From an uncultured Methanosarcinales archaeon (GTDB lineage: Archaea > Nanobdellota > Nanobdellia > Woesearchaeales > GW2011-AR9): a DNA stretch of 43,910 bases. Numbering within the stretch: the stretch's first letter is position 1; every line of letters begins with the position of its first letter. The DNA lies in NCBI GenBank assembly GCA_964460605.1, contig CAYWPT010000004.1:1-43910 (forward strand), written 5' to 3'. Position numbers and translations under genes: made by a program. This document shows positions 4,082-37,730 of this stretch, piece after piece. A model generated the notes under the pieces. It saw only the letters and a program-made list of their open reading frames with translations. It was not told the origin of the DNA and did not search any database.

Positions 4082-4480
4082 ATGGATATGAACAAACAAC
4101 AAGGGGTTATGCAATTACAACAAATGCAGGAACAATTAGAACACTTATCTCAACAACAAGAGATTATGCAACAGCAACTTTTAGACATTGAGATTAGTAA
4201 AAACGCTTTATTAGAAATAGAACAAACTCCAGAAGGTACTGAAATTTTAAGTCAAGTAGCTAATGGTGTTTTTGTAAAAACTAAACTAGTAAAAGGAGAT
4301 AGTTTTATCGTAAATATTGGAGCAAACGCTACTGCTGAGAAAAAAACTATTGAATTAATTTCTATGTATGAAGATCAAGAAGGAAAGTTAGTAGGACATA
4401 TTGAGAGTCTTCAACAAACTATTCAAGATTTAAGTACTGAGATTATAAGTAAAATTAATAAGTTAGAACAAGAGGCATAA
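4082..4480 (+). CDS. pfdA: Prefoldin alpha subunit
   Basis: Coiled-coil ends around beta-hairpin core 'EILSQVANGVFV...IVNIGAN...EK'; conserved archaeal adjacency to ftsY. Confidence 0.9.
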   Translation: MDMNKQQGVMQLQQMQEQLEHLSQQQEIMQQQLLDIEISKNALLEIEQTPEGTEILSQVANGVFVKTKLVKGDSFIVNIGANATAEKKTIELISMYEDQEGKLVGHIESLQQTIQDLSTEIISKINKLEQEA

Positions 4481-4484
4481 ATAG

Positions 4485-5975
4485 ATGTTTGGAAAATTAA
4501 AGGATAAATTAAAATCTGCATTATCCGTATTTTCTAGTAAAACTGAAGAGGAAGCTGAAGATATTCCTCAAGAAGAAGTTGATAAAATTATTGCTCAAAA
4601 AGAAGAGAAGCTTGAAGCCAAGGAAAAGTCAGGTAAGAAAAAAACTGTTTCTAAGAAAAAAGAAAAAGCAGTTGAAGAAGCTCCTGAAGAAAAAATTGAT
4701 GAATTTAAAGAGGAAGTTGCTCCTGAACTAATACGTCGTGCTGAGGAAGAGAGTGCTACTGAAACCGAAGTAGATGCAAAAGTTATGCCTCATGTAGCTA
4801 AAGTTGAAAGAAAGGTTGAAGAGAGCGTTATTGAAAATTCACCCACTAAAGTTAAAAAAGAAATTTCTAAATCAGTTAAAGAGAAAGAAATAATTCCAAT
4901 AAAGGTAAAAGAAGAATTTAAACCAAAAGAAAAAGAGATTGAAACTTTAAAAGAAGCAGTTGTTAAAGAAAAAGAAGAGAGTAAAGTTGAGAAAAAAGAA
5001 GTTCAAGCTGAAGATATTATTAAAGAAGCTGCACAGGAAGCACAAAGCAACAAAGTTGCTAGTGCCGATTCAAAGAATCAGGAGCCTAAAAAAGGATTTT
5101 TTGGCAGATTTAAAGAGACACTTACTACTAAAAAAATTAATGCTGAAAAATTTGAAGAATTATTCTGGGATTTAGAAATGGTTTTGCTTGAAAGCAATGT
5201 TTCTGTAAAAGTAATTGAGAAAATAAAAATAGATTTACAAGAAGAATTAGTTGACAAGCCTCTTCCACGAGATGTTATGGGGAAAATCCAAGAAGTTCTC
5301 AAAAAAACCTTGCATGAGATCCTCTCAGTTGAACAAATTGATTTACTTTCTAAAATTGATGAGAAGAAAAAAGAAGGAAAACCTTTTGTCATTATGTTTT
5401 TTGGCATCAACGGTGCTGGAAAAACAACTAGCATTGCAAAACTCACTCATTTATTACAATCAAAAAAATATTCAGTAGTTCTTGCTGCTGGAGATACTTT
5501 TAGAGCAGCAGCAATTCAGCAACTTGAAGAACATGCTAATAAATTAGGTGTGAAGATGATTAAACACGATTATGGATCAGATGCTGCAGCAGTTGCTTTT
5601 GATGCAGTACAATATGCTGAGAAAAGCGCTGTAGACGTTGTTTTAATCGATACTGCAGGACGTTTACATTCTAATACTAATCTGATGAATGAACTGGATA
5701 AAATCAACCGTGTAGCTAAGCCTGACTTCAAAGTCTTTGTAGGGGAAAGCATCACAGGAAATGACTGTATAGAACAAGCAGAGAAGTTTAATGAGCTCGT
5801 ACAATTAGATGGCGCAATTTTAACTAAAGCAGATATTGATGAGAATGGTGGAGCTCCACTGAGTATTGCATACACCATTAAAAAACCAATTTTATATTTA
5901 GGGATGGGTCAAGAGTATAAAGATCTTGAGAAATTTAATCCTGATTTAATTCTAGAAAGGCTTGGTTTTGATTAA
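4485..5975 (+). CDS. ftsY: SRP receptor FtsY with long charged N-terminal region
   Basis: GINGAGKTT, DTFRAAA, DTAGR, TKAD, GQEY.DL motifs. Confidence 0.96.
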   Translation: MFGKLKDKLKSALSVFSSKTEEEAEDIPQEEVDKIIAQKEEKLEAKEKSGKKKTVSKKKEKAVEEAPEEKIDEFKEEVAPELIRRAEEESATETEVDAKVMPHVAKVERKVEESVIENSPTKVKKEISKSVKEKEIIPIKVKEEFKPKEKEIETLKEAVVKEKEESKVEKKEVQAEDIIKEAAQEAQSNKVASADSKNQEPKKGFFGRFKETLTTKKINAEKFEELFWDLEMVLLESNVSVKVIEKIKIDLQEELVDKPLPRDVMGKIQEVLKKTLHEILSVEQIDLLSKIDEKKKEGKPFVIMFFGINGAGKTTSIAKLTHLLQSKKYSVVLAAGDTFRAAAIQQLEEHANKLGVKMIKHDYGSDAAAVAFDAVQYAEKSAVDVVLIDTAGRLHSNTNLMNELDKINRVAKPDFKVFVGESITGNDCIEQAEKFNELVQLDGAILTKADIDENGGAPLSIAYTIKKPILYLGMGQEYKDLEKFNPDLILERLGFD

Positions 5976-6041: not shown

Positions 6042-6728
6042 CTAATAAATTTTGTATTCTGGTTTCAAACGTGCTTTAAGCATTACTACTTCTCCACGTT
6101 GTAATGCTCTTCCAAGATCAGATCCATCTTTACCTACAACATTTGCATATCCAGTATTTTCAAAATGGTCTCCTAATTCTTCATCACGAACATCGAATCG
6201 TGTTGCAATAGTTCCAAAGTGATCATTTGCTTGAACTCTGTAAGAAAACTCTACCCAACCATTGTTTGGTTTTCCAGCATTTAATACAGAAAAAGGACCC
6301 ATGTGTTCTGGATCAAACCTGTGTTCACTTGCAGGTCCGTAGACCGGCTCATCTGCTAAAATGTAAACATCTTGTCCTTCTCGAATACTCTCTAAAGAGC
6401 TACCGCCGACATTAACAACTTCAATTGGGATAACATGCATAGAATCTGCAGTCCCGTCTGTAATTTGACCCAGTTGATACTCTTTCCAAGCTCTTTGTAC
6501 TTGCGTTTGATTAGATACTTCAGAATCTCTATTAAAATTGTAAACTAATTTTCCTCTACTGTTTTTTCCAACGTAAGTAAAAATCTCTTCTGGCTGAGCA
6601 ACTTCTACAACTGGTGTAGGAGCAACTTGAGAAACTGGTGCCGGAGCTTCATTACATGCACTTAATGCAAGTAAACCCGCTGCTAAAATTCTCTTTTCTA
6701 AATTTAATCCATCTATCATTTTTATCAT
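6042..6728 (-). CDS. Lipoprotein with C-terminal LysM-like domain
   Basis: Lipobox 'LLALSAC'; 'YRVQANDHFGTIATRF...LQRGEVVML' fits LysM pattern YxVxxGDxxxxIAxxF...LxxGQxL. Confidence 0.6.
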   Translation of the reverse strand: MIKMIDGLNLEKRILAAGLLALSACNEAPAPVSQVAPTPVVEVAQPEEIFTYVGKNSRGKLVYNFNRDSEVSNQTQVQRAWKEYQLGQITDGTADSMHVIPIEVVNVGGSSLESIREGQDVYILADEPVYGPASEHRFDPEHMGPFSVLNAGKPNNGWVEFSYRVQANDHFGTIATRFDVRDEELGDHFENTGYANVVGKDGSDLGRALQRGEVVMLKARLKPEYKIY

Positions 6729-6755
6729 CTCTTTGTATTTAATAAAATAAAAAAA

Positions 6756-7109
6756 TTAAAGTTTGTAAGATTCACAAAGATCTCCAGTATTATAAGATCC
6801 ATCTGTATTAAGACCTTCAAACTTAAGTAAAGACATTCCTTCGTCTCCTTTGATTGGAGTACATTCTTCTCCACTATTAAACCTGTATACTCTACCGACT
6901 TCGTCTAATCTTGGCTCATTTACATCGGTAACATAAACCCATTCGTCTCCAGCCATGTAATCAGGGATAACTTGAGTATCTGGCATTCCATTACCAGCTA
7001 CAAAGCCAGCAATACCTGTTGCTGCAACTAATCCTGCTAATCCTAGGGTTCTTCCCCATCCAGCCTTTCTTGGGGTTACTATCTCTGTATTTTCATTTGG
7101 GTTTGACAT
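6756..7109 (-). CDS. Small membrane-anchored exported protein
   Basis: N-terminal hydrophobic segment 'TLGLAGLVAATGIAGFVAG'; Cys pair; GGAGG RBS upstream. Confidence 0.65.
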   Translation of the reverse strand: MSNPNENTEIVTPRKAGWGRTLGLAGLVAATGIAGFVAGNGMPDTQVIPDYMAGDEWVYVTDVNEPRLDEVGRVYRFNSGEECTPIKGDEGMSLLKFEGLNTDGSYNTGDLCESYKL

Positions 7110-7199
7110 TTTAATATAATCCTCCGATAATAATCGTTATAGTGTATAATTGGGCTTTTACTTTAAAAAGCTTTCTATTTATTCATCTCTACAGAGTAG

Positions 7200-8726
7200 T
7201 TACACTAAATCATGCCTAGCTTTCATATGTCCATAGACAATATTTGAGACCCCACGAATAACATTTCCACGAGTTGAAATCCATGAACCGTAACTTCCAG
7301 TTCTTCTATCTTTTTCAATTATCCCAATTATTGTGTAAGGTACTCTTGCACCATCACGTCCACGAGCTGAGAGTATTCCCATATCTCCACAGAGCATTGC
7401 TGTACTTCCTGTTTTATTCCATACACCAGTTCCTGTTGGAACTCTCGAAGCTCCTGAATAAATTCTATCTCTTCCTGGTAAAGCCATCACTCTTCTTAGT
7501 TCTCTTGATTGTGGAAGGTTTCCATTCCAGAGCTGAAACAAGAATCTACTATAATCATGAGCAGATGCTTTATTCCTATAAGTTCTTCCACTTGTTGGGA
7601 TATACTCAACAATTTGAGTGTCCGGAACTACATGCCCATACTCACGCTGCAAAACTCTTTGCACTGCTAATGGACCGCCTACTGCTCTCATAAGCCAATT
7701 AGTTGCACCATTGCTACTTCTTTGAATTGAAGCTTCTAAGTTTGCCCTACTCTGAGGACCATAAGTTAATCTTCCTCTATTTACTTCATGCATAAATGCT
7801 AAAGCCACAAGTGGTTTTACCATACTTGCACATTGTCGCGGAACATCTTCATTAATTGAAACTAGTTTATCTCCTGTTAAAAAATCATAGACAGACCATG
7901 AGGTATGTTCATCATCTGAAACTCTTCCTGCTCTTCTTTGCCCTGCAATATATCTTTCAATTTCTGCTTCAAGATCACCAGAAGTTGCTGCTACAACACG
8001 CGGAGTTGATCTCTCAACTCTTTGAACTCTTTCTCTTTGGATAACTTCATCTAGATGAGATGATTCACCAAAAATAACATCATTATTTCTCTCAACTATT
8101 GGAGTCGCACCATTATTGTATCCGCCGGATCTAAGTAAACCAGCAAGCCTTTGTGAAGCCGAAGCTGCTCCACTATGATCTCCGGATCTCTTATAGACTA
8201 GAGCAAACTCTCCATCATTTCTTTTTTCAATAACTAACTGCTTTCTAATACTATCTCCTAGAATCCCTTCAACTTCAGCGTAATCTCTTTTGAGTGCATC
8301 AAGGTTCGCACCTTTACCAAAAGCAACATTCCAAAGTCTATGATATCCAGAATCTTGAATATCAACTGCTATTTTAAAACCATGAGGAACTAATGTTCTT
8401 GCATGACTTGCTGCAACTCTTTTTGAAGATGCTTGATCACCATCACGATCATAAATTATCCCAAAGTGCCCATCAGTATCTTGAACAACATGAACATCTT
8501 CAGCAACTCCAGGACCTAAAAGAGCTACAATCTCATCTCGAAGACCGAATGCTTCATCAATGCTAGTAAGTCCAAAATCTCGAGAACTGTAAGAAACGTC
8601 AAACAAACCAGACTCGTCTTGTGCTGCAGCTGAAGAAGGCACACTCAGAGCTCCAACTAGTGCACTCGCGCCTAAGGCATTGAGTACATCTCTTCTACTA
8701 GGATTTCTTAATGTTTCGTCGGACAT
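7200..8726 (-). CDS. Tat-exported class A beta-lactamase/PBP-like serine hydrolase with two N-terminal repeats
   Basis: Twin-arginine 'SRRDVL' + h-region + AxA; SxxK (SMVK), SxN (SSN), KTG (NKTGS). Confidence 0.85.
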   Translation of the reverse strand: MSDETLRNPSRRDVLNALGASALVGALSVPSSAAAQDESGLFDVSYSSRDFGLTSIDEAFGLRDEIVALLGPGVAEDVHVVQDTDGHFGIIYDRDGDQASSKRVAASHARTLVPHGFKIAVDIQDSGYHRLWNVAFGKGANLDALKRDYAEVEGILGDSIRKQLVIEKRNDGEFALVYKRSGDHSGAASASQRLAGLLRSGGYNNGATPIVERNNDVIFGESSHLDEVIQRERVQRVERSTPRVVAATSGDLEAEIERYIAGQRRAGRVSDDEHTSWSVYDFLTGDKLVSINEDVPRQCASMVKPLVALAFMHEVNRGRLTYGPQSRANLEASIQRSSNGATNWLMRAVGGPLAVQRVLQREYGHVVPDTQIVEYIPTSGRTYRNKASAHDYSRFLFQLWNGNLPQSRELRRVMALPGRDRIYSGASRVPTGTGVWNKTGSTAMLCGDMGILSARGRDGARVPYTIIGIIEKDRRTGSYGSWISTRGNVIRGVSNIVYGHMKARHDLV

Positions 8727-8832
8727 TCTTATCTCTTAAGGCTCTATAATTAATAAGTGATTTAAGATAAAATTCTTATTTTAAGCTTAAATAGTAGAGA
8801 ATTGGCTTATTTATAAACTTTTCCATCATTAT

Positions 8833-9123
8833 TCACCGGTAAGTAGTAATTTGTGAGTAACAGCCTTCTTCTGCTGGGTATTGCCTACAATACTCAAGAA
8901 GAACACCAGAAAGCTCTGGTTTTGGAGATATAATCTCTTCAGAGGGACCACAAGATTTAGGAAGAAAGCGAGGACTTGGAAGGCTACATTTCTCTCCAGG
9001 TATGGGTTCCATAAAGACAGTTAGTTCTCTATCCGCAGAATCAGAAAAAGCTGGCACTGCTGGCATAGAAGGCTTAAGAAGTAAAGCGAGTCCTGAGATG
9101 AGTAATGTTCTGTTTCTCGTCAC
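8833..9123 (-). CDS. Small secreted Cys-containing hypothetical protein
   Basis: GTG start, signal-like N-terminus, 4 Cys, TTTAAATA upstream on minus strand. Confidence 0.5.
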   Translation of the reverse strand: MTRNRTLLISGLALLLKPSMPAVPAFSDSADRELTVFMEPIPGEKCSLPSPRFLPKSCGPSEEIISPKPELSGVLLEYCRQYPAEEGCYSQITTYR

Positions 9124-9177
9124 GAGGGAATTAGAATATTCCTGAAATATTTAAATTCTCTGAAACATACAAGAGCA

Positions 9178-9185
9178 TTTAAATA
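9178..9185 (+). promoter_or_regulatory. Archaeal TATA box for lig (likely leaderless transcript)
   Basis: TTTAAATA ending ~22 nt before ATG 9207; similar spacing at 10961, 11315 and 14450. Confidence 0.6.
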
Positions 9186-9206
9186 GGAGCAAAAGTTCCA
9201 ATTTTC

Positions 9207-10943
9207 ATGGATTTTAAGCAATTAGCAGCTGTGTATGAGAATCTTGAAAATACGAGTTCTGGTAATCAAATGAGAGAAATTCTAGCAGAATTTTTCAAAG
9301 AAGTTCCAGTAAATAAGATCCATCTTCTTGCCCATTTAGTTATTGGAAAATTTGCTCCAGACTATGAAAACACTGTGCTTGGTATTGCTGAGAAGTCCCT
9401 TTTGAAGGCACTTGCTAAAGCTTCTGGGCGAAGCGAGAAAGAAGTCAAGGAACTTGCTAAAAAAGAGGGTGATGTTGGCCTTGCTGCAGCCCATTTGTTT
9501 AAGAAAAAACCAATGACACTTGTTCCAGTTGGCACATTGACCATTGATGAGCTTGAAGAAAAGGTCAAAAAGATCATATCTCTTTCTGGAAAAGGAAGTC
9601 AAGAAGAAAAAGAAAAAATTATTATGAGCATGCTGCAAAAATGCTCATCTCAAGAAGCAAAATATCTTTCTCGTTTATTATTAGGTAATATGAGAATTGG
9701 CGTTGCTGATATGACTGTCCTTGATTCATTAGCAATGGCTTTTACTGGTGATAAGAAGAATAAAAAATTGCTTGAGCGCGCCTACAATGTTAATCCTGAT
9801 GCAGGAGCAATAGCAGAGATTGTTGCTGAGAAAGGATTGAAAGGCTTAGAGAAAATTAAAATTGTAGTTGGGCACCCCATTAAAGTAATGCTTGCGCAAC
9901 GAGTTAAGAAAATTTCTGAAATCTTTGAGAAGATCAATGGAGAGATTGCAATTGAAACCAAATATGATGGTGAACGTGTACAAGTACATATGGACAAAGA
10001 GGGACTTGTAAATTTGTATAGTAGAAGAATGGAGAACATTACTTATCAATTCCCAGATATTGTTGAGTACCTACATTCTGAATTAAAAGGAGTGAAAGAC
10101 ATCATCTTTGAAGCTGAAATTATTCCTCTAGGAAAGAAAGGAGAACATTTACATTTTCAAACCTTAATGAAAAGGAAAAGGAAAACTGAAATTGAAAAGT
10201 TTGTCAAAGAGATCCCGGTTGTCCTCTATTGTTTTGATCTTCTTTATCTCAATGGAAAAGAATTAGTACAAGAGAATTATCCTGTTCGTATTAAAAAATT
10301 GAAGAGCATTATTAGTAATGATCATTTGCGTATGAGTGAGACCATTTACACTACTTCTGTTGATGAAGCTGAGGAATTTTTTAATGATCGTATTGAGAAA
10401 GGCTATGAGGGGATCATGGTCAAATCTCAAGAGGATGAAAAATCTGTCTATAAAGCAGGTGCTCGTGATTGGGCTTGGATTAAATGGAAAAAAGAGTATA
10501 TGGGAGATGTTGTGGACACTTATGATTTAGTTGTCATTGGTGCTTTTTATGGTAAAGGTAAACGTTCTGGCAGATATGGTTCATTATTATGTGCTACTTA
10601 TAATCATAAGGATGATGCTTTTGAATCAGTTAGTAAGTTAGGTACTGGAATGACCGATAAAACACTCTCTGAATTGCCTTTGGTTCTTGATGATCATAAA
10701 GTAGACAAGAAACCTGCACGGGTTATTGTGAAAAAAGAAATGTATCCCGATGAATGGTTTGAACCCACTGTTGTTGTCGAAGTTCTTGCTGCTGAGATTA
10801 CTCGTGGCAGTCTTCATTGTTGTGCTGTGAAAGATGGTCGTGGAATAGCTTTGCGATTTCCAAGATTTATTCAAATTCGTGATAATAAAAGTGCTGAGCA
10901 GGCGACCACTAGTAAAGAATTGAGTGATTTGTATGAAAGATAG
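9207..10943 (+). CDS. lig: ATP-dependent DNA ligase
   Basis: KYDGER (motif I), FDLLY, EGIMVK, WIKWK, LRFPRF. Confidence 0.97.
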   Translation: MDFKQLAAVYENLENTSSGNQMREILAEFFKEVPVNKIHLLAHLVIGKFAPDYENTVLGIAEKSLLKALAKASGRSEKEVKELAKKEGDVGLAAAHLFKKKPMTLVPVGTLTIDELEEKVKKIISLSGKGSQEEKEKIIMSMLQKCSSQEAKYLSRLLLGNMRIGVADMTVLDSLAMAFTGDKKNKKLLERAYNVNPDAGAIAEIVAEKGLKGLEKIKIVVGHPIKVMLAQRVKKISEIFEKINGEIAIETKYDGERVQVHMDKEGLVNLYSRRMENITYQFPDIVEYLHSELKGVKDIIFEAEIIPLGKKGEHLHFQTLMKRKRKTEIEKFVKEIPVVLYCFDLLYLNGKELVQENYPVRIKKLKSIISNDHLRMSETIYTTSVDEAEEFFNDRIEKGYEGIMVKSQEDEKSVYKAGARDWAWIKWKKEYMGDVVDTYDLVVIGAFYGKGKRSGRYGSLLCATYNHKDDAFESVSKLGTGMTDKTLSELPLVLDDHKVDKKPARVIVKKEMYPDEWFEPTVVVEVLAAEITRGSLHCCAVKDGRGIALRFPRFIQIRDNKSAEQATTSKELSDLYER

Positions 10944-24039: not shown

Positions 24040-25224
24040 CTAAAAATCTTTTGGTAAAATACTGCTAAAAACATCATCCACTTCATCTTTGTCTTCATCT
24101 TCATCACATAAATCTTTTTTAAGATCTTCATAACCCTCAGTAGTTCTACGACCACAAAAAAGATTAGTTAAATCATCATTATTAATTGTCCCTTTATTTT
24201 GTCTTATAAGGCTTGCAGCAAGATCAGCAAGATTTGAAAAACTTCCGGGAAAATGTTCTACTCCCTGTTCAGGATCACAAAAAGGATTTTCCCCATTATC
24301 TTCTTCACATTCAGCTTCAAGAGTGTCATAATATGCATTAACACAACCTTCAATATCAACAGTAGGTTCATTATCAAAAAAATTGAAACCAGAATTTGCA
24401 AGTGATGGACCCATTGAAACCGCAAAAGCTCCTAAAAACATTGAAATCTGAGCAGCTCTATAACCCGCATTAGCAAGAAAACCTCTAGGAACTAAATCTC
24501 TAGGACTAGATAGATCATCAGTTATTACATAATCAAGATAAACTACATTACTACCCTCATTAGTTTCAGAAACAACATCATCTAAAGGTGTGTTGTTAAA
24601 ATCATCAAGGCCTTCATTAAAAAATGAGTATCCTTGACCATTATCTAAAAGTGAGGTACAAGGAATCGCTTGTTTAGAGTCTTGTGAATTTGTAGAATCA
24701 TCATCTAATCGAGATTCATATTCACCATCACTCTCAAAAACAGTTGTATCTAAATCTGTTTTAGAAGGGGTATAACCACTATTAGCAGGAAAATCATGAA
24801 CAACAATACCACTATAATCATCATCTTGAACTGGTCTTTCTTTTTCATTCCTAGTTTTAAAAAGAGTTGTAAATTTTGAGCTAATAGAACTTTCGTCTAC
24901 ATAAGTGTTACTCCTTTCATTACGACGATTAACCCTTGAAGAAAGGTCTTCATAAACACTTTTAAGTCTTAAAGCGTCTTCATCATTTAAATCTTCTAAT
25001 TCAGAAGAATACTCATCAATTATTTTTTCAACATTCCTTACTCTATCACGGAGAAACCAATTATTATTAACTTTACTAGTATCTTCCTCAACTTCGAAAT
25101 CACCTACTAAAGAAAAAGAAGAGGCATAATTATTTTGTAAATGTTTTACATTTTTACCTAAAGCTATATCTTTAATAAGGTCTATGATTTTATTACTTTG
25201 ACTACTATATTGATTATTTTGCAT
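24040..25224 (-). CDS. Acidic single-pass membrane protein with Cys-containing C-terminal domain
   Basis: Hydrophobic 'ISMFLGAFAVSMG' segment; D/E-rich; third gene of a co-oriented run. Confidence 0.7.
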   Translation of the reverse strand: MQNNQYSSQSNKIIDLIKDIALGKNVKHLQNNYASSFSLVGDFEVEEDTSKVNNNWFLRDRVRNVEKIIDEYSSELEDLNDEDALRLKSVYEDLSSRVNRRNERSNTYVDESSISSKFTTLFKTRNEKERPVQDDDYSGIVVHDFPANSGYTPSKTDLDTTVFESDGEYESRLDDDSTNSQDSKQAIPCTSLLDNGQGYSFFNEGLDDFNNTPLDDVVSETNEGSNVVYLDYVITDDLSSPRDLVPRGFLANAGYRAAQISMFLGAFAVSMGPSLANSGFNFFDNEPTVDIEGCVNAYYDTLEAECEEDNGENPFCDPEQGVEHFPGSFSNLADLAASLIRQNKGTINNDDLTNLFCGRRTTEGYEDLKKDLCDEDEDKDEVDDVFSSILPKDF

Positions 25225-25236
25225 TTTTTTACATTT

Positions 25237-25770
25237 TTATTTTAATTGATTTAATAATGGTTCTAAAAGTTGATAATATATTGCTGATCCCACTAATGCA
25301 CTCCCTACAAAATAAGTAAATGGAGAATCTAATACTCTTGAAAGTGTTTGATGTGGTGAAAAATTTAGACCATCATCTATTGAAATTGGTTCAGTAATCT
25401 CTTCTTCTAAATTAACTGCAGGAGGACATTCTATTGTAGTTTCAGATTTCCTTAAATTATATCCAGTAGCAATAATTCTTACTAATTCATCTTCTGATAC
25501 AGCTCTTGGTGCATCAGAAGAATCCTCAAATGAAACAAGATAATTTGCAATCGCTCCACCATCACTACTTAAATTTAAAAAATGAATGTCATCATAACCC
25601 AACCCACCTAATATTAAGTCTATATCTCTTGGTTTGACAACTCTTCCGACAAGGTATTCTCTATTCAAACGATCTATTAATGGTTGATATTTTTCCCTAT
25701 CTGTTTGAGGGTCATCTGTTTGAGTGAGTGCAGTTTGATCTTGACTATTAATGTGCAGTATATTATTCAT
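25237..25770 (-). CDS. Hypothetical protein with C-terminal transmembrane segment
   Basis: 'FTYFVGSALVGSAIYYQLL' near the C-terminus. Confidence 0.7.
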   Translation of the reverse strand: MNNILHINSQDQTALTQTDDPQTDREKYQPLIDRLNREYLVGRVVKPRDIDLILGGLGYDDIHFLNLSSDGGAIANYLVSFEDSSDAPRAVSEDELVRIIATGYNLRKSETTIECPPAVNLEEEITEPISIDDGLNFSPHQTLSRVLDSPFTYFVGSALVGSAIYYQLLEPLLNQLK

Positions 25771-25789
25771 TATTAAATTCCCCTAAATA

Positions 25790-27154
25790 TTAAAACCTAA
25801 TACCTAAACTCGCATTAGCTCCTACAGCACCAAGTGTAATTTCACCATTTTGAACAATGAACCCACCTTCAGCAGCTACACCAAGGTCCACATTTTCACC
25901 TAAACCAAGATTAATACCAACATTTAAAGGTTGAACATATAACCCTCCTAAACGAGCAGCACTATCTGTAAGATTTTGTTCTGCAAGATCTGCACCTGCA
26001 TAATTTTCTACAAGATTACCCCTAGCAGTACTTGAACAATCACAATCATAATGTTCACCATTGTTATTTCCACTATTAGAAAAACCAGAATATCCTGGAC
26101 TTTCAAGGAAATCTTGACCTAATGGAACAACAAAAAGGTCTACACCTGAAGATACTCTCCCAGAAAGAGATACACCTTTCCCTAATTTAGCACTAGGAGT
26201 TTCATAAGCAATATCTGCTGTAATATTTGCCCCAACAATAGTTTTTTCTAAATCTGAATCTGAAGTGATTACTGCACCGATACCCAATAAAGCACCCAAA
26301 TAACCATTATCGCCATCTTTGAATGGTGCTCTAATACCTGCTTTAATTGTAGGTAGAGCAACAACATAATCATCTTCAGAATTAGAAGCATAAACCACAC
26401 TGTTTTCTGTAGCAATTATTGCTTCAACTCCAGTTGCACTTCTATCTAAAAAATTTTCTTGATTTAAAGGAGATAAACTGTCATCTAAAGAAGCAACAGC
26501 ACTTTCTTGAACAAGACTTGGTTTTTCCGTAGCACTTGGGTCAAAAACACAAACAGCCTTAGAAATTCTTGGTTTTTCATATTGACAACCGAATACAGGT
26601 TTATGCCAATCTTCAAGAGCAACAAGTTTATCCTCACTAGCCTTATAACCATTATGGACCTCAATTTCAGGATTACTTATACAATAAAAATCATTACTCA
26701 AATCACCACCATTTGTAACTATATCAAAAGCAGCATCAATTATATTTTGGTCTGTACCTTCTGGGAATAAACTAAGCATATCCTCAGTTCCACAAGCAAC
26801 TGTTTTCTCTTCTACAGCAATTGTTTCTAAATCTAAAGACCCTCCCTCAGTTTTAACACTAGAAAAAGAAGTTGAAGTTGATTCTAAACCACTTGAACCA
26901 CTACAATCACAATCATCATTCTTATTAGAGATAAAACGACCAAGGTCTAAACCGGCTACACCACATTCTGGCATATTAGCATAAGAAGATGTATTTAAAC
27001 CATAAAGAGAACCCATAACTGCAGGTAATCCTAAACCTAATAAAAGACCAGCAGCAGTTGCACCCCTTTTTTTAATTAATTGAATTTGATTTGTTAAATT
27101 TTTGTTTTCTTCCTGAAGTCTACCAGTTAAATTATCATCATTATTATTATTCAT
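25790..27154 (-). CDS. Membrane-anchored protein with Cys-rich middle and putative C-terminal beta-barrel
   Basis: N-terminal TM; alternating hydrophobic/Gly strands in the last ~215 aa ending 'ANASLGIRF'; AGGTGA RBS. Confidence 0.7.
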   Translation of the reverse strand: MNNNNDDNLTGRLQEENKNLTNQIQLIKKRGATAAGLLLGLGLPAVMGSLYGLNTSSYANMPECGVAGLDLGRFISNKNDDCDCSGSSGLESTSTSFSSVKTEGGSLDLETIAVEEKTVACGTEDMLSLFPEGTDQNIIDAAFDIVTNGGDLSNDFYCISNPEIEVHNGYKASEDKLVALEDWHKPVFGCQYEKPRISKAVCVFDPSATEKPSLVQESAVASLDDSLSPLNQENFLDRSATGVEAIIATENSVVYASNSEDDYVVALPTIKAGIRAPFKDGDNGYLGALLGIGAVITSDSDLEKTIVGANITADIAYETPSAKLGKGVSLSGRVSSGVDLFVVPLGQDFLESPGYSGFSNSGNNNGEHYDCDCSSTARGNLVENYAGADLAEQNLTDSAARLGGLYVQPLNVGINLGLGENVDLGVAAEGGFIVQNGEITLGAVGANASLGIRF

Positions 27155-33863: not shown

Positions 33864-34946
33864 TTATTTCAAGTTAATAACGTAACCACGACCACGCTTA
33901 ATACGCTCTATCTGTTCTTGGAATTCTAAACCGTTGAGAATAGTTAAAACTGTCTCTTCAGGTAAGTGTGATAATTCTTTCATAAATTTACTTTGAGGCA
34001 CAGAACCACCATTAGCTTTTAAGATTCTGAGTACTTGTGAGACATATTTAGCGCTGTCCTCATCTATCTCTGGTGTTGTACTTGCTTCCTCTACTTTAGT
34101 ACTTTTCTTTTTCTCAGCTTCTTCTAATAATTCACCAGCATCAAATAATTCGCTTTCAAGTGCAAAGGTTTCTTCATCAACTTCAACTTCAACGTCTTTA
34201 GCAACTTCTTTTTCCTGTACATCTTCTAAAACTTCTTTTGTTTTATTTACTTGCACCTTAGTTGATTTTTCAACTTTGACTTCTTTCTCTTCTTCTTTGA
34301 TAAGTTCATCTAGCATTTCAGCTGTTAGTTCTTGATTTTTAGCTTCTACTGTTATGGAGGGTGTTTTTTCCTCTTTTTTTGAAACTTCTTCTTTTTTCTC
34401 TACAACTTTTTTTGTTGCCTTTGGCCCAGAGCCAATAGTGATCTCCTTTATTTTTGTAGTTTCCTTTTTTGTATCAGGTTTTTTATTTTTTCTTAGTCTG
34501 TTTCTGAGTAAGAAGAGCGTAAAGAATAAAACAAAGAAGAGTACAAATGTTAATAATAACTCTTTTAAGAATAATGCCGGGCTTGCGAATTTAGCTAAAG
34601 TAAAGCTTTCATCAAATAAAGATTCTTGTTGCGCATAATTTGGGAATAATACTAAATCGTGATATTGTTTTTCATTACCAATTACTCCAACTTCTTCTGT
34701 AGTTCCAAATTTATCAGAGCTTGCAGTGATAGTATAAGTTCCAGGTTCTACTTGAAAACGATAAATACCATTCTCAGAATAAATCTCTTGTACTGGGTTT
34801 GTTGAAATACTTACAGTAACACTCTCAATTAAACTTAATTTATGATTATATAAATTACCTTCCAATGTCAGAGCTTGAGCTGACGTAATAAGAATTAAAA
34901 GTATACTCAAAAATACAAATACTCTGAGTCTTGTCTTCATGCACAT
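33864..34946 (-). CDS. Signal peptide + beta-sandwich + TM + charged linker + C-terminal wHTH protein
   Basis: 'PGTYTITAS' (carboxypeptidase-regulatory-like), TM, C-terminal 'GGSVPQS...IERIKRGRGYVINL'. Confidence 0.75.
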   Translation of the reverse strand: MCMKTRLRVFVFLSILLILITSAQALTLEGNLYNHKLSLIESVTVSISTNPVQEIYSENGIYRFQVEPGTYTITASSDKFGTTEEVGVIGNEKQYHDLVLFPNYAQQESLFDESFTLAKFASPALFLKELLLTFVLFFVLFFTLFLLRNRLRKNKKPDTKKETTKIKEITIGSGPKATKKVVEKKEEVSKKEEKTPSITVEAKNQELTAEMLDELIKEEEKEVKVEKSTKVQVNKTKEVLEDVQEKEVAKDVEVEVDEETFALESELFDAGELLEEAEKKKSTKVEEASTTPEIDEDSAKYVSQVLRILKANGGSVPQSKFMKELSHLPEETVLTILNGLEFQEQIERIKRGRGYVINLK

Positions 34947-35055
34947 TATGTGTGAATTTTAATTTAAATACTTTGTTATGCTTGAAGAAATAGTATTAGA
35001 ATAGATTGCTTGCATTATCTTAATCTTTAAATATGTCTTTTTCGCTTAAGAATGT

Positions 35056-35652
35056 ATGAAAAGGTTCTTAGCATTAATGGTCCTTGTACTTTTTTTGGTA
35101 TCTTTAGGGATTGTCATTGCAGATAATCATGAAGAAGGTGATTTGCTTCCCAGAGTTATGCATGTTATAGAATTAGCTGAGTTTAAATCAAGTTCTTCTC
35201 TAGATAAAGAGTTTTTTGTAGAGAAATTAGAAACATTTGCTGTGCTTGAACAAGAATTAGCTGAGAGTGATGATATAGGTAGAATAAAAGACATCCATTC
35301 AGAGATTCAAGCAGAATGGGGAGAATGTATTTTATTAGTGCGTTATACTGCAGTAGAAAGTAAAAAAGCTGAGTTAGCTGATTTCTTTGCTTTTAAAGAA
35401 GATATACAAGAAGCTCTTTTTTATCGTGGACGTATCTCTTTAGCTCGAGGTGGAGACAAAGATAGAATTAGTCAAAGTATTGCTTCGTTTAATTCTAAGT
35501 TGAGTGAAGCTGAGAGCATGTTTACTTCTGTAGCTTCAATTAGGAAAGGTGATGCAGGCAGTTTAAATGATGTTTTTGCTTCATTGGAAGAAGTTGAAGT
35601 GAAATTGTTAGAAGCGCAAGAAATAATGCAAGAGTTTGTTTTGAGTAATTAG
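35056..35652 (+). CDS. Secreted alpha-helical protein
   Basis: Signal peptide ending VIA; helical E-rich body. Confidence 0.7.
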   Translation: MKRFLALMVLVLFLVSLGIVIADNHEEGDLLPRVMHVIELAEFKSSSSLDKEFFVEKLETFAVLEQELAESDDIGRIKDIHSEIQAEWGECILLVRYTAVESKKAELADFFAFKEDIQEALFYRGRISLARGGDKDRISQSIASFNSKLSEAESMFTSVASIRKGDAGSLNDVFASLEEVEVKLLEAQEIMQEFVLSN

Positions 35653-35654
35653 AT

Positions 35655-36419
35655 TTATTTAAGAATTATCACATTACCTCGTCCTTTCTTGATTTTTTCA
35701 ATCTTTCCTTTGTGGACAAGGTCTGTTAATACTAAACTCACCTTAGCTTCAGATATATCCATGAGCTCTTTTCTGAGTTGTTTTTGGGAAACTCTTCCTT
35801 CGTTAGTTTTTAAAAATGTAAGTACTCTCTTTGATAAAACATCATCTGATTCTTCCTTAGTTTTAGGTTCGGATTCTTTTACTAAATCTGCTTTCTCTTC
35901 TTCAGATTCTACTTTTTTTTCTTTCTTAGGTTCTTCTACTTTTGGCTCTTCTTTCTTCTTTTCATCTTTGAAAACTTTAGTTCTCAATAGTACAAAAAGT
36001 CCAATTCCTATGAATGCCAATAATACAATAAGGTCTATACTCAAACCATATTTGGGATCTATTTCAATATCTGCAGTGTTTGGATCTAAATCATCCCATA
36101 AATCATCTTCATCAGCAAAACTTGGGAATAAGAATAAGTCATATATTATATCATCTTCTTGAATTGATATAGATTCCACCGCTTCTAAATCAGCCCATCT
36201 TGCCTTTAGAATATAATCACCCTTTGCTAATTCAAAAGAATATGTTGAGCTTTCTGCTAAGATTTTCTGAGTAGTATCACCACTAATATCTATGATTGCA
36301 TCATTTAACTCATTTAATTGATAATCATAGATGATTCCTGAGATAGTCGTAGCTGATGCTGGTTGTATTGTTAATAAAATCATAGATATAATAAATAATA
36401 CAGATAAATAAAGTTTCAT
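35655..36419 (-). CDS. Membrane-tethered wHTH protein, paralog of 33864-34946
   Basis: Same architecture; shared 'DLxLFP' and 'GRVSQKQLRK...SEAKVSLVLTDL...GKIEKIKKGRGNVIILK'. Confidence 0.8.
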   Translation of the reverse strand: MKLYLSVLFIISMILLTIQPASATTISGIIYDYQLNELNDAIIDISGDTTQKILAESSTYSFELAKGDYILKARWADLEAVESISIQEDDIIYDLFLFPSFADEDDLWDDLDPNTADIEIDPKYGLSIDLIVLLAFIGIGLFVLLRTKVFKDEKKKEEPKVEEPKKEKKVESEEEKADLVKESEPKTKEESDDVLSKRVLTFLKTNEGRVSQKQLRKELMDISEAKVSLVLTDLVHKGKIEKIKKGRGNVIILK

Positions 36420-36686
36420 AATTTTTCAAAAATTGAATAGTATAAAAATCTTGTTAAAAATTAATAATTTCGCCCAATCTCTTAAAAATCTACTCTGTTT
36501 TATCATCTAGCGGTTATTTCAACCCGGAGATTTAATTTAAAGAAGAATAAAGTTTTGTAAAGAGTTAGAAGAAAAATATCACCTTATTTGTTAGTGATTC
36601 TAAAAGTATCTTTAAAAAGAAGATTGAAGATTGTAAATGTCATAACACAAAATTAAAGAGGTTGAGAGACTTCAGAGGTTAAAAAA

Positions 36687-37730
36687 ATGGTTAAAAAAAT
36701 AATGGGATTGTTATTACTTATGGTAATGATGATGAGTATGGTTCCTGTAGCATTTGCTCAAACAGATTCTACAGCTGATGATAATATAGTGGACGATGAA
36801 TCAGATGTATTAACATCTATAAAAAATGAAAAGACTAGGATTAAATTAATTGATGGAGAATTATTTAAAGTTAAAAGAACTAAAGAAATAAGTAAAATAG
36901 GTGTAGATTTCCAAAAAAAGAAAATTTCAGCTAAAGATAAAGTAAAAGAATTTAAAAAAGATTTAGAAAGATTACAAAATTTAAAAGAAAATCATAAAGA
37001 AAAAAAAGAGAAATATTTAATCAAAAGTAAAGATGCTAAGAGATTACATAAAGAACTTAGAGAGTGCAGGTCAACACAAGAGGATTGTAGTGATTTATTT
37101 CATAAAAGAAATAATATAATTAGACAACAAATTTTATCAGCATCTGAATACATTACATCAGCTTTAGATAAATTAGAAAATCGTGTTGAAGCCTCAGAAA
37201 CTTTAGATGAAGATGAGAAGGATTTTCTTTTTGAAGAAATCGCAACTGACAGATTAGCTATAGAAAATGCAGTAAATAATCTTAAAGGATTAAGTGAAGA
37301 TGAAGACGTTAACGGTGAAGAAATCCGTGAAGCAATTAAAGAGCTAAAAGTTGTTATGAAGACAGCACATCCTAATTTTAAATGGACAATTGCTATATTA
37401 ATTAATAGTAAAATTAATGGAATTGTAGAAGATTTTGATACTAGTGTTGAAAAAATTGAAGATAAGATTAGTTTAGCTGAAGAAGAAGGATACGACACAT
37501 CAAATCTTGAAGATTTATTAGGGGAATATGATACATTAGTTGAAAATGCTAGAAACAATCATCAAGCCGCCCAGGATTTGTACATCTCTGCATTTAATGA
37601 TGGAAGAAATCAAGATGTTGCAGAAGAAGGACGTGCCTTACAACAAGATGCTCGTGAAAATCTTCGTGAAGCTAAAAGTGTTCTTAAAAAAATATTCCAA
37701 GAATTAAGAACTTTAGAAGCTAGTGAATAG
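36687..37730 (+). CDS. Secreted coiled-coil protein
   Basis: Signal peptide ending AFA; long heptad helices; GAGGT RBS. Confidence 0.75.
   Translation: MVKKIMGLLLLMVMMMSMVPVAFAQTDSTADDNIVDDESDVLTSIKNEKTRIKLIDGELFKVKRTKEISKIGVDFQKKKISAKDKVKEFKKDLERLQNLKENHKEKKEKYLIKSKDAKRLHKELRECRSTQEDCSDLFHKRNNIIRQQILSASEYITSALDKLENRVEASETLDEDEKDFLFEEIATDRLAIENAVNNLKGLSEDEDVNGEEIREAIKELKVVMKTAHPNFKWTIAILINSKINGIVEDFDTSVEKIEDKISLAEEEGYDTSNLEDLLGEYDTLVENARNNHQAAQDLYISAFNDGRNQDVAEEGRALQQDARENLREAKSVLKKIFQELRTLEASE

Follow-up and report, generated by a model that had tools for sequence, protein, structure and literature searches.

The question raised by this locus is what an archaeon would do with a group of exported proteins that appear to be directed at peptidoglycan. 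The locus lies within a stretch of 43,910 nucleotides (contig CAYWPT010000004.1 of assembly GCA_964460605.1, forward strand; hereafter the window) from an uncultured archaeon of the Woesearchaeales, the genome of which (G000) comprises 0.86 Mb in 34 contigs and is 89% complete. Four consecutive minus-strand open reading frames (ORFs), situated in the window ORF list between the archaeal FtsY gene and the gene for an ATP-dependent DNA ligase, had been read in an original prediction as a toolkit for attaching to or attacking bacterial cell walls. We found that one of the four, encoding a serine hydrolase of 508 amino acids (aa), specifies an intact, probably exported, putative DD-peptidase of PBP-A-like type that is most likely directed at the stem peptides of bacterial peptidoglycan, and that the other three are not its conserved partners. 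The gene and the parts of its product are as follows.

7200 to 8726, minus strand: gene for the 508-aa serine hydrolase, stop included, similar to PBP-A and class A beta-lactamases (PF13354, E=7.4e-18).
8619 to 8726, minus strand: signal region, residues 1-36, with an SRRDVL n-region, a hydrophobic core and AAAQ, as read from the sequence.
8346 to 8609, minus strand: N-terminal repeat 1, residues ~40-127, with the order beta-alpha-alpha-beta-beta-alpha-beta in the secondary structure of an AlphaFold2 (AF2) model.
8061 to 8345, minus strand: N-terminal repeat 2, residues ~128-222, with the same topology as repeat 1 (AF2 and hhalign).
7203 to 7994, minus strand: catalytic domain, residues ~245-508, with S301xxK304, S337xN339 and K438TG440.

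The assignment of this protein to the serine hydrolases of penicillin-binding fold was borne out by comparison of sequence and structure. It matched PF13354 (Beta-lactamase2) with 65.1 bits against a cut-off of 22, the same profile matched 31/31 aligned relatives, and the 31-sequence alignment contained 63 invariant columns, which include S301, K304, S337, N339, K438, T439 and G440 and thus the SxxK, SxN and KTG motifs. The AF2 model (pLDDT 86.8, pTM 0.81) consists, in order, of a signal helix, the two repeats (residues 42-124 and 132-219 in the model), a low-confidence linker and the C-terminal domain. When this model was used in a fold search with VIA, the best scores for residues 244-504 were those with LRA-5 (Z 28.6) and PBP-A (Z 28.4), which are effectively tied, followed by other class A-like proteins and then, in the range Z 17-22, by PBP4, PBP5 and class D enzymes. 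Both fold searches (Foldseek and VIA) were filled by matches to the catalytic domain and so left the N-terminal repeats unprobed. At the sequence level, the best match among solved chains was PBP-A (profile E=8.1e-11), and the public annotation of the gene is "serine hydrolase".

PBP-A (Tll2115 of Thermosynechococcus elongatus, PDB 2j7v/2j8y) has the same fold as the 508-aa protein, with a root-mean-square deviation (rmsd) of 2.2 over 234 aligned residues, and the SxxK, SxN and KTG motifs are shared. As far as the available text of PMC11189452 goes, PBP-A is a DD-carboxypeptidase/endopeptidase, the activity of which deteriorates the E. coli envelope. The two proteins are only 20% identical, however, and PBP-A lacks the two N-terminal repeats of ~90 aa and the RR-type signal of the 508-aa protein, the host of which is archaeal. 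The top structural match, LRA-5 (a class A beta-lactamase 'precursor' from a soil metagenome, PDB 8eo5; rmsd 2.2, 235 residues aligned, 26% identity, Foldseek E=1e-13), is a single-domain protein, unlike the 508-aa protein; in the available part of its description, the wild type is without Glu166 and its beta-lactamase activity is biologically insignificant. A more distant comparison is with the DD-endopeptidase Bd3459 of Bdellovibrio (PDB 5ceb, Z 17.1 to the 508-aa model). Bd3459 is a PBP-fold enzyme used by a predator on the wall of another cell, but it belongs to the PBP4/S13-type family, and the analogy to the 508-aa protein is functional only.

The neighbours of the family in other genomes are consistent with a substrate in the bacterial wall. 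Six of the 15 archaeal loci that were scanned carry a wall-related neighbour or fusion, and the other nine, including the window, carry none by Pfam. The six are listed below.

L011: neighbouring gene with three LysM domains and Peptidase_M15_3.
L188: neighbouring SLT gene.
L180: neighbouring SLT gene, a weak match (25.0 bits).
L187 (genome G023), 4102 to 5652, minus strand: 516-aa fusion of PF13354 (residues 98-282) to an SLT lytic transglycosylase (residues 370-490).
L186 (genome G303): M23 gene in the slot between FtsY and DNA ligase.
L182: neighbouring polysaccharide deacetylase gene.

A divergent gene for VanY, which is a D-Ala-D-Ala carboxypeptidase, was found at 5 of 16 scanned bacterial loci (L015, L016, L038, L046 and L054; Desulfobulbales-type). 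A peptidoglycan-directed role is supported because SLT, M23, LysM-M15 or deacetylase genes recur as neighbours or fusions at the archaeal loci, and the kinship with PBP-A, together with the VanY, SLT and M23 neighbours, points to the DD-peptidase class. The wall-directed role originally proposed for the whole group is thus very probable for the hydrolase, by its kinship with PBP-A and by the archaeal and bacterial loci described above, and is not supported for the four genes as a unit.

The family itself is large and mostly bacterial. Of 8000 candidates that were scored, 1006 match the 508-aa protein; among the matches listed, 119 besides the query are 39-52% identical to it over 85-100% of its length. 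A family relative is encoded in 398/403 candidate stretches, which were taken from one-genome-per-species contigs, and most members are found in the Desulfobulbales. The role of this uncharacterised bacterial family may merit study in its own right.

The best explanation, to which we give roughly an even chance, is that the protein is an exported acyl-serine DD-carboxypeptidase/endopeptidase that acts on the wall of a neighbouring bacterium. After export, the SPOR-like repeats would tether the enzyme to glycan strands in the sacculus of that bacterium. Ser301, activated by Lys304 and aided by Ser337/Asn339 and the KTG strand, would then attack D-Ala-D-Ala or a cross-link peptide bond, and the enzyme, as a DD-carboxypeptidase/endopeptidase, would trim or un-crosslink the wall locally at the site of contact. 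Of this picture, the fold, the motifs, the family membership, the residency of the gene and the company of other wall hydrolases across the lineage are observed, whereas the substrate, wall binding by the repeats, the path of export and the purpose, including a bacterial host or prey, are inferred. No DPANN archaeon is known to have a proven bacterial host.

The binding step of this mechanism would depend on the N-terminal repeats. Repeat 1 and repeat 2 matched each other in hhalign with a probability of 99% (E ~1e-18), and by this comparison they are a true tandem duplication. A resemblance to SPOR domains had been suggested, and the topology agrees: the beta-alpha-beta-beta-alpha-beta order and a similar length are shared with SPOR, whereas the repeats carry an extra short helix. 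In the ESM Atlas, SPOR clusters ranked first for residues 38-225, with a score of 0.85 that counts as a lead only by the rating of the tool. Profile comparison did not bear out the resemblance to the same degree. Against an alignment of 30 SPOR domains from 25 genomes of the order Desulfobulbales, repeat 1 gave a short match at 26% and repeat 2 a match in register over 74 columns at a probability of 8.5%. The repeats appear in the model to be a family-specific domain of SPOR-like topology, which may or may not be homologous to SPOR.

Several observations weigh against an enzyme that acts on the walls of neighbouring bacteria, an activity predicted here from sequence, a structure model and gene neighbours. 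The Pfam SPOR profile (PF05036) matched 0/31 family members at E<=1, and the hhalign probabilities of the repeats against SPOR (8-26%) are low, compared to 0.1-8% for a LysM control. The family is also sparsely and unevenly distributed: in a sample of the phylum, 15 of 401 genomes match at E<=1e-20 (seven matches are full length and eight consist of the catalytic domain only, in other architectures that include the SLT fusion of L187 and a 6282-codon open frame). Of 41 close relatives, four match. Within the host genome, none of eight peptidoglycan-related families (LysM, SLT, VanY, M23, NLPC_P60, Amidase_2, Mur_ligase_M and Ddl; 0/8) was found in a profile search, so that no other wall hydrolase or wall-binding family was recognised; the absence of the murein synthesis markers Mur_ligase_M and Ddl among these, by contrast, speaks for the proposed reading. 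TatC was found in 0/8 Woesearchaeal carriers of the full-length gene (G000, G003, G026, G251, G182, G258, G420 and G349; completeness 79-96%) despite the conserved RR motif. In sequencing run X3, pieces of the four-gene block were present with five differences from the window, all in the hydrolase gene (window 7223, 8165, 8176, 8246 and 8251, corresponding to K502E, A188S, H184R, R161G and S159N). All five (5/5) are non-synonymous and four are within repeat 2, which could reflect relaxed constraint; at a depth of ~4x, errors are possible.

The last of these points concerns the chemistry of the active site. In profile alignments, the invariant Ile376 falls on Leu158 of PBP-A, the residue changed to Glu in PDB 2j9o, and on Val166 of LRA-5, that is, on position 166. 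In contrast to PBP-A, the omega-loop-equivalent segment of the 508-aa protein also contains an invariant Glu374, which is two residues before position 166 when the wild-type PBP-A and LRA-5 are used for alignment and which aligns, under a 2-residue shift, to E166 of the LRA-5 V166E mutant. Because the alignment at position 166 is ambiguous between Ile376 and Glu374, the sequence leaves the deacylation chemistry unsettled, and the 508-aa protein might conceivably deacylate in the manner of a beta-lactamase.

An alternative role for the enzyme is nutritional. The hydrolase and any LysM-like binder would in that case harvest D-Ala or peptides from free muropeptides or necromass for an auxotrophic cell and would leave living walls alone, which would fit a genome of this small size, the absence from the families found in it of a glycan-cutting enzyme for opening a sacculus, and the sporadic occurrence of the family, like that of accessory scavenging genes. 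Elsewhere in the lineage, however, the family is fused to or adjoins enzymes of the SLT and M23 types, which act on intact walls by cutting them. Soluble substrates would moreover require no domain for binding polymeric glycan, the role that we propose for the repeats. We consider scavenging unlikely, but not far-fetched.

It is also conceivable that, after gene transfer, the fold was recruited for a new role and that peptidoglycan is not the substrate; D-amino-acid peptides or esters might be cleaved instead, or some component of the envelope of the archaeon itself. The beta-lactamase fold does include esterases and D-amino-acid amidases, which were retrieved at Z 16-17, and the three neighbouring genes are orphans; the archaeal branches in the trees described below are long. 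A change of substrate is nevertheless difficult to reconcile with the retention of all 63 columns that are invariant with the bacterial members, including the three motifs, and with the repeated company of wall hydrolases around the archaeal copies, and we regard it as distinctly unlikely.

That the protein is a true class A-type beta-lactamase, which would hydrolyse or sense beta-lactams and perhaps protect a bacterial partner, is improbable. The PF13354 and NCBIfam class A matches and the alignment of Glu374 to position 166 of the activated LRA-5 mutant would be explained, but the NCBIfam bla_class_A match reached 36.5 bits, below the cut-off of 200, and position 166 falls on Ile376 when the wild-type PBP-A and LRA-5 are considered. 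Furthermore, the nearest solved proteins are poor beta-lactamases as far as the available accounts of them go, the archaeon is without a beta-lactam target, and the VanY, SLT and M23 neighbours indicate wall metabolism. An exported DD-peptidase directed at the wall of a neighbouring bacterium is retained as the preferred reading.

The proposed enzyme would have to leave the cell, and all four ORFs had been credited with an export signal. The signals were judged here by reading the sequences and by a crude hydropathy scan. A lipobox (228-aa ORF), a transmembrane (TM) segment (117-aa ORF) and an RR motif (508-aa protein) are visible; the signal of the 96-aa ORF depends on a GTG start, and the SRRDVL n-region of the 508-aa protein scored 13.1 bits with TIGR01409, below the cut-off of 16.7, and E=0.0012 with TIGR02811. 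Although all four ORFs passed the hydropathy scan, so did 12/42 window ORFs overall, with a second run of four at 33864-37730. Four export signals in a row are unremarkable for these reasons and were rejected as a statistical signal.

The RR motif is widely conserved among the archaeal copies. It is kept in 9/11 archaeal full-length homologues (the window, L048, L007, L011, L019, L040, L178, L180 and L181) and in 6/6 bacterial members of the clade that contains the archaea, compared to 1/69 members of the Desulfobulbales clade by a simple pattern. A Tat route, as had been predicted for the 508-aa protein, was not upheld: TatC was found in only 2/41 relatives, and neither TatC nor TatA was found in the 89%-complete assembly, to which the score below the TIGR01409 cut-off is added. 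The simplest reading is that export would proceed by the Sec route, acting on an inherited RR-type signal. A more elaborate idea is that the Tat motif is read by a bacterial partner. The folded enzyme would pass through a cell-cell connection to the host cytoplasm, the Tat system of the host would export it to the periplasm, and the wall would be remodelled from inside; the slot between FtsY and ligase would then be a fast-evolving islet for host interaction, in which PBP-like, M23 and SLT cassettes are swapped along with orphan secreted proteins. This idea arises because the RR motif is kept in 9/11 archaeal copies while TatC is missing from the carriers searched, and we regard it as a long shot.

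Composition and per-run contigs were used to ask whether the block is native to the contig. The GC content of the block (0.36-0.39 compared to ~0.33) is slightly raised, and Gly, Ala, Arg and Pro are abundant in the proteins that it encodes; the GC excess is confined to codon positions 1 and 2. At the third codon position (GC3), the three larger ORFs had values of 0.18-0.21, whereas the other window genes had values of 0.11-0.37, mostly 0.11-0.27. In run X1, one Logan contig spans 4800-7759 and another 7735-9700, each with 0 differences, and in run X2 the contigs gave the same coverage, from FtsY into the hydrolase and from the hydrolase into the ligase, also with 0 differences. X1 and X2 are possibly the source samples of the metagenome-assembled genome (MAG), in which case they are not independent of the MAG reads, although each run was assembled separately; X3 is another sample of the same study.

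The remainder of the window consists of archaeal core genes (prefoldin, a wyosine radical-SAM enzyme, S6e, NMD3, ProRS, IleRS, FtsZ and topoisomerase), which, together with nearest loci from Candidatus Woesearchaeota, is consistent with the archaeal, Woesearchaeota-type identity given to the stretch. It is very unlikely that the block is a piece of bacterial DNA placed in an archaeal contig by an error of assembly or binning, despite the raised GC, the Gly/Ala/Arg/Pro-rich composition and the mostly bacterial membership of the family, because GC3 equals that of the flanking archaeal genes and only the first two positions deviate, contigs from two runs bridge both junctions without a difference, and two further Woesearchaeal genera have homologues next to FtsY. 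To the extent of these data, mis-assembly is excluded: the block is native archaeal DNA, and the hydrolase gene is a long-term resident of the archaeon.

The published record already contains much of the frame for these results. The available text of PMC9723730 describes Woesearchaeal GH23/SLT genes with a "predatory/vampiristic" reading, and a 2025 survey (PMC12352652), in the portion available, found peptidoglycan hydrolases in 175/3,706 archaeal genomes, prominently in Nanoarchaeota. As far as this text goes, the DPANN wall enzymes of both reports are likewise exported and are read as serving predation on, or parasitism of, bacteria, and SLT genes such as those they describe adjoin or are fused to the PF13354 family in genomes G026 and G023. 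The difference is that the reports, in the parts available, cover glycan-cutting enzymes and a fixed Pfam list, unlike the peptide-cutting 508-aa family. The domain list of the survey names S11, S13, VanY, SLT and LysM in its available portion, and there were 0 occurrences of PF13354 or 'Beta-lactamase2' in the text of 7 supplementary files of PMC12352652; the PF13354 family was apparently missed by that list. A literature search gave no paper, among the matches listed, that joins Woesearchaeota with DD-peptidase.

Exported enzymes with bacterial peptidoglycan as their only known substrate are among the few sequence clues to partnerships between DPANN archaea and bacteria, and with the 508-aa family a probable peptide-cutting enzyme joins the glycan-cutting ones already published. 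The gain is incremental, as the host or prey idea is already in print and the gene is publicly annotated as a serine hydrolase. The 508-aa protein should be a soluble, readily expressed target for direct assays of wall binding and DD-peptidase activity.

The descent of the family was evaluated with two quick maximum-likelihood trees of 85 and 52 rows, which are unrooted and carry SH-aLRT support only. Both trees split the family in two. A Desulfobulbales-type clade had support values of 96 and 100, and on the other side, a deep and mainly Woesearchaeal clade, were all of the archaeal rows (10 and 11) together with a small number of bacterial rows, of Eisenbacteria type or from two MAGs labelled Enterobacterales. 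Within this clade the branches of the archaeal rows are long and their order is not resolved; a single archaeal origin is compatible with the trees. Rooting with L004 and L006 failed because these outgroups had excessively long branches, and in the absence of an established root the trees do not identify a donor. The gene may have passed from bacterium to archaeon, a direction suggested because the substrate and the partner genes occur in bacteria. One further member was seen at L177 (G254:C25:30209-30964), where a domain similar to PF13354 (E=3.7e-29) is embedded in a 6282-codon open frame, which may encode a giant surface protein.

The position of the gene beside FtsY recurs in related archaea. 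Prefoldin-FtsY directly adjoins a family homologue in a second genus (G003/L048 and G420/L181), and in a third genus (G303; L186:3295-10459) the order is prefoldin, FtsY, a catalytic-only PF13354 protein of 341 aa, a Peptidase_M23 protein of 588 aa and DNA ligase, an arrangement in which this site may repeatedly have served as an islet for wall-hydrolase genes in this Woesearchaeal family. The DNA ligase border is common to the window, G002 and G303. In G002, which is of the same genus as the window and 95% complete, the same slot is present without the hydrolase. The content of the slot between FtsY and ligase thus turns over within a genus, and the region is best regarded as a slot of variable content that houses secreted proteins, with wall-hydrolase genes in three genera and, in the window, orphans as well. 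In place of the four ORFs, the G002 slot (L101:3948-5020) contains two small, unrelated ORFs of 194 and 144 aa; both contain Cys and have a hydrophobic segment at the N-terminus.

In the window, the four consecutive minus-strand genes were confirmed at 6042-6728, 6756-7109, 7200-8726 and 8833-9123. The borders of the slot and the three ORFs that accompany the hydrolase are as follows.

4485 to 5975, plus strand: FtsY gene (PF00448, E=2.7e-71), left border of the variable slot.
6042 to 6728, minus strand: 228-aa lipobox ORF, with LSAC at residues 21-24 and what may be two divergent LysM-like repeats at residues ~45-130 and ~150-228.
6756 to 7109, minus strand: 117-aa orphan ORF, with an N-terminal TM segment at residues ~21-39.
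8833 to 9123, minus strand: 96-aa orphan ORF with a GTG start, in the divergent region between hydrolase and ligase; its reality is uncertain.
9207 to 10943, plus strand: ATP-dependent DNA ligase gene (PF01068, PF04675 and PF04679), right border of the slot.

The three small ORFs had no relative beside any of the 85 other family loci (E<0.6) and no convincing relative in 40 related genomes, tblastn against the corresponding slots in G002, G003 and G004 gave nothing below E=0.6, and PHROGs gave no match to them. The four genes are not a conserved unit, because the small ORFs are without relatives at the other family loci and in the other genomes. The notion of a four-gene toolkit was consequently abandoned, as none of the eight peptidoglycan-related families searched for was found in the genome either, and the three small ORFs are taken to encode secreted or membrane proteins that are specific to the lineage and are not conserved enzyme partners.

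The 117-aa ORF has GGAGG 11 nt upstream of its ATG; it matched no Pfam or NCBIfam family, and only itself among near-length candidates of a collection of 5.8 billion proteins. For the 96-aa ORF, which also had no relative but itself in a protein collection search, the GC contents by codon position are 0.53/0.51/0.27. The public gene call for this ORF is a 77-aa protein that starts from Met20 and is without a signal peptide; its signal peptide is conditional because only the GTG start includes it.

The 228-aa ORF had been described as a LysM-like lipoprotein. Residues 12-24 are KRILAAGLLALSAC, in which the lipobox LSAC, preceded by a positively charged n-region and a hydrophobic core, agrees with the consensus [LVI][ASTVI][GAS]C, and the protein also has a Pro/Ala-rich linker. 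A search of 1.84 billion representatives returned the protein itself and two weak matches only (P0123 and P0124). P0124 is a metagenomic protein of 341 aa that shares its C-terminal 72 residues with the 228-aa ORF at 40% identity, and this domain recurs once more within the 228-aa ORF. The C-terminal domain, as a two-sequence profile with P0124, matched an alignment of 30 LysM domains from 26 genomes in hhalign with a probability of 91.3% (E=9.4e-7) over all 49 columns, compared to <1% for the controls (SPOR and the hydrolase repeats), and the top matches in the ESM Atlas were all LysM (0.86). The domain retains the start (Y-x-V-x-x-x-D...IA..F) and the end (G-x-x-V/L) of LysM, and differs from it by two insertions that total 13 residues. 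Pfam LysM (PF01476) had 0 matches in the whole genome, the best Pfam match of the ORF was PF23473 (E=0.18, 12.3 bits compared to a cut-off of 29.3), and the single-sequence AF2 model (pLDDT 37) is unusable and silent on the LysM fold. The lipoprotein part of the description thus stands as a prediction from the lipobox, and the label 'LysM-like' is plausible by profile comparison, although Pfam does not recognise it; the protein may carry two degenerate LysM-like modules.

Only P0124 was found to share this LysM-like domain with the 228-aa ORF. For the N-terminal 260 residues of P0124 there was no counterpart in Pfam, PHROGs or the PDB: Pfam gave nothing relevant for P0123 and P0124, PHROGs gave no match to P0124, and its search against PDB sequences gave a chance match only (E=0.94).

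Two other parts of the window are of note. At 24040-27154 on the minus strand there are three successive ORFs (394, 177 and 454 aa) that are acidic, Ser/Asn-rich and Cys-containing and have no Pfam match; their GC3 of 0.11 is the minimum of the window. At 33864-37730, including 35655-36419, a series of ORFs carries TM segments at the N-terminus, and two of these ORFs end in DUF7343, a domain that looks like a winged-helix domain. A DUF7343 protein (L007:9357-10022) adjoins a homologue of the hydrolase in another Woesearchaeote.

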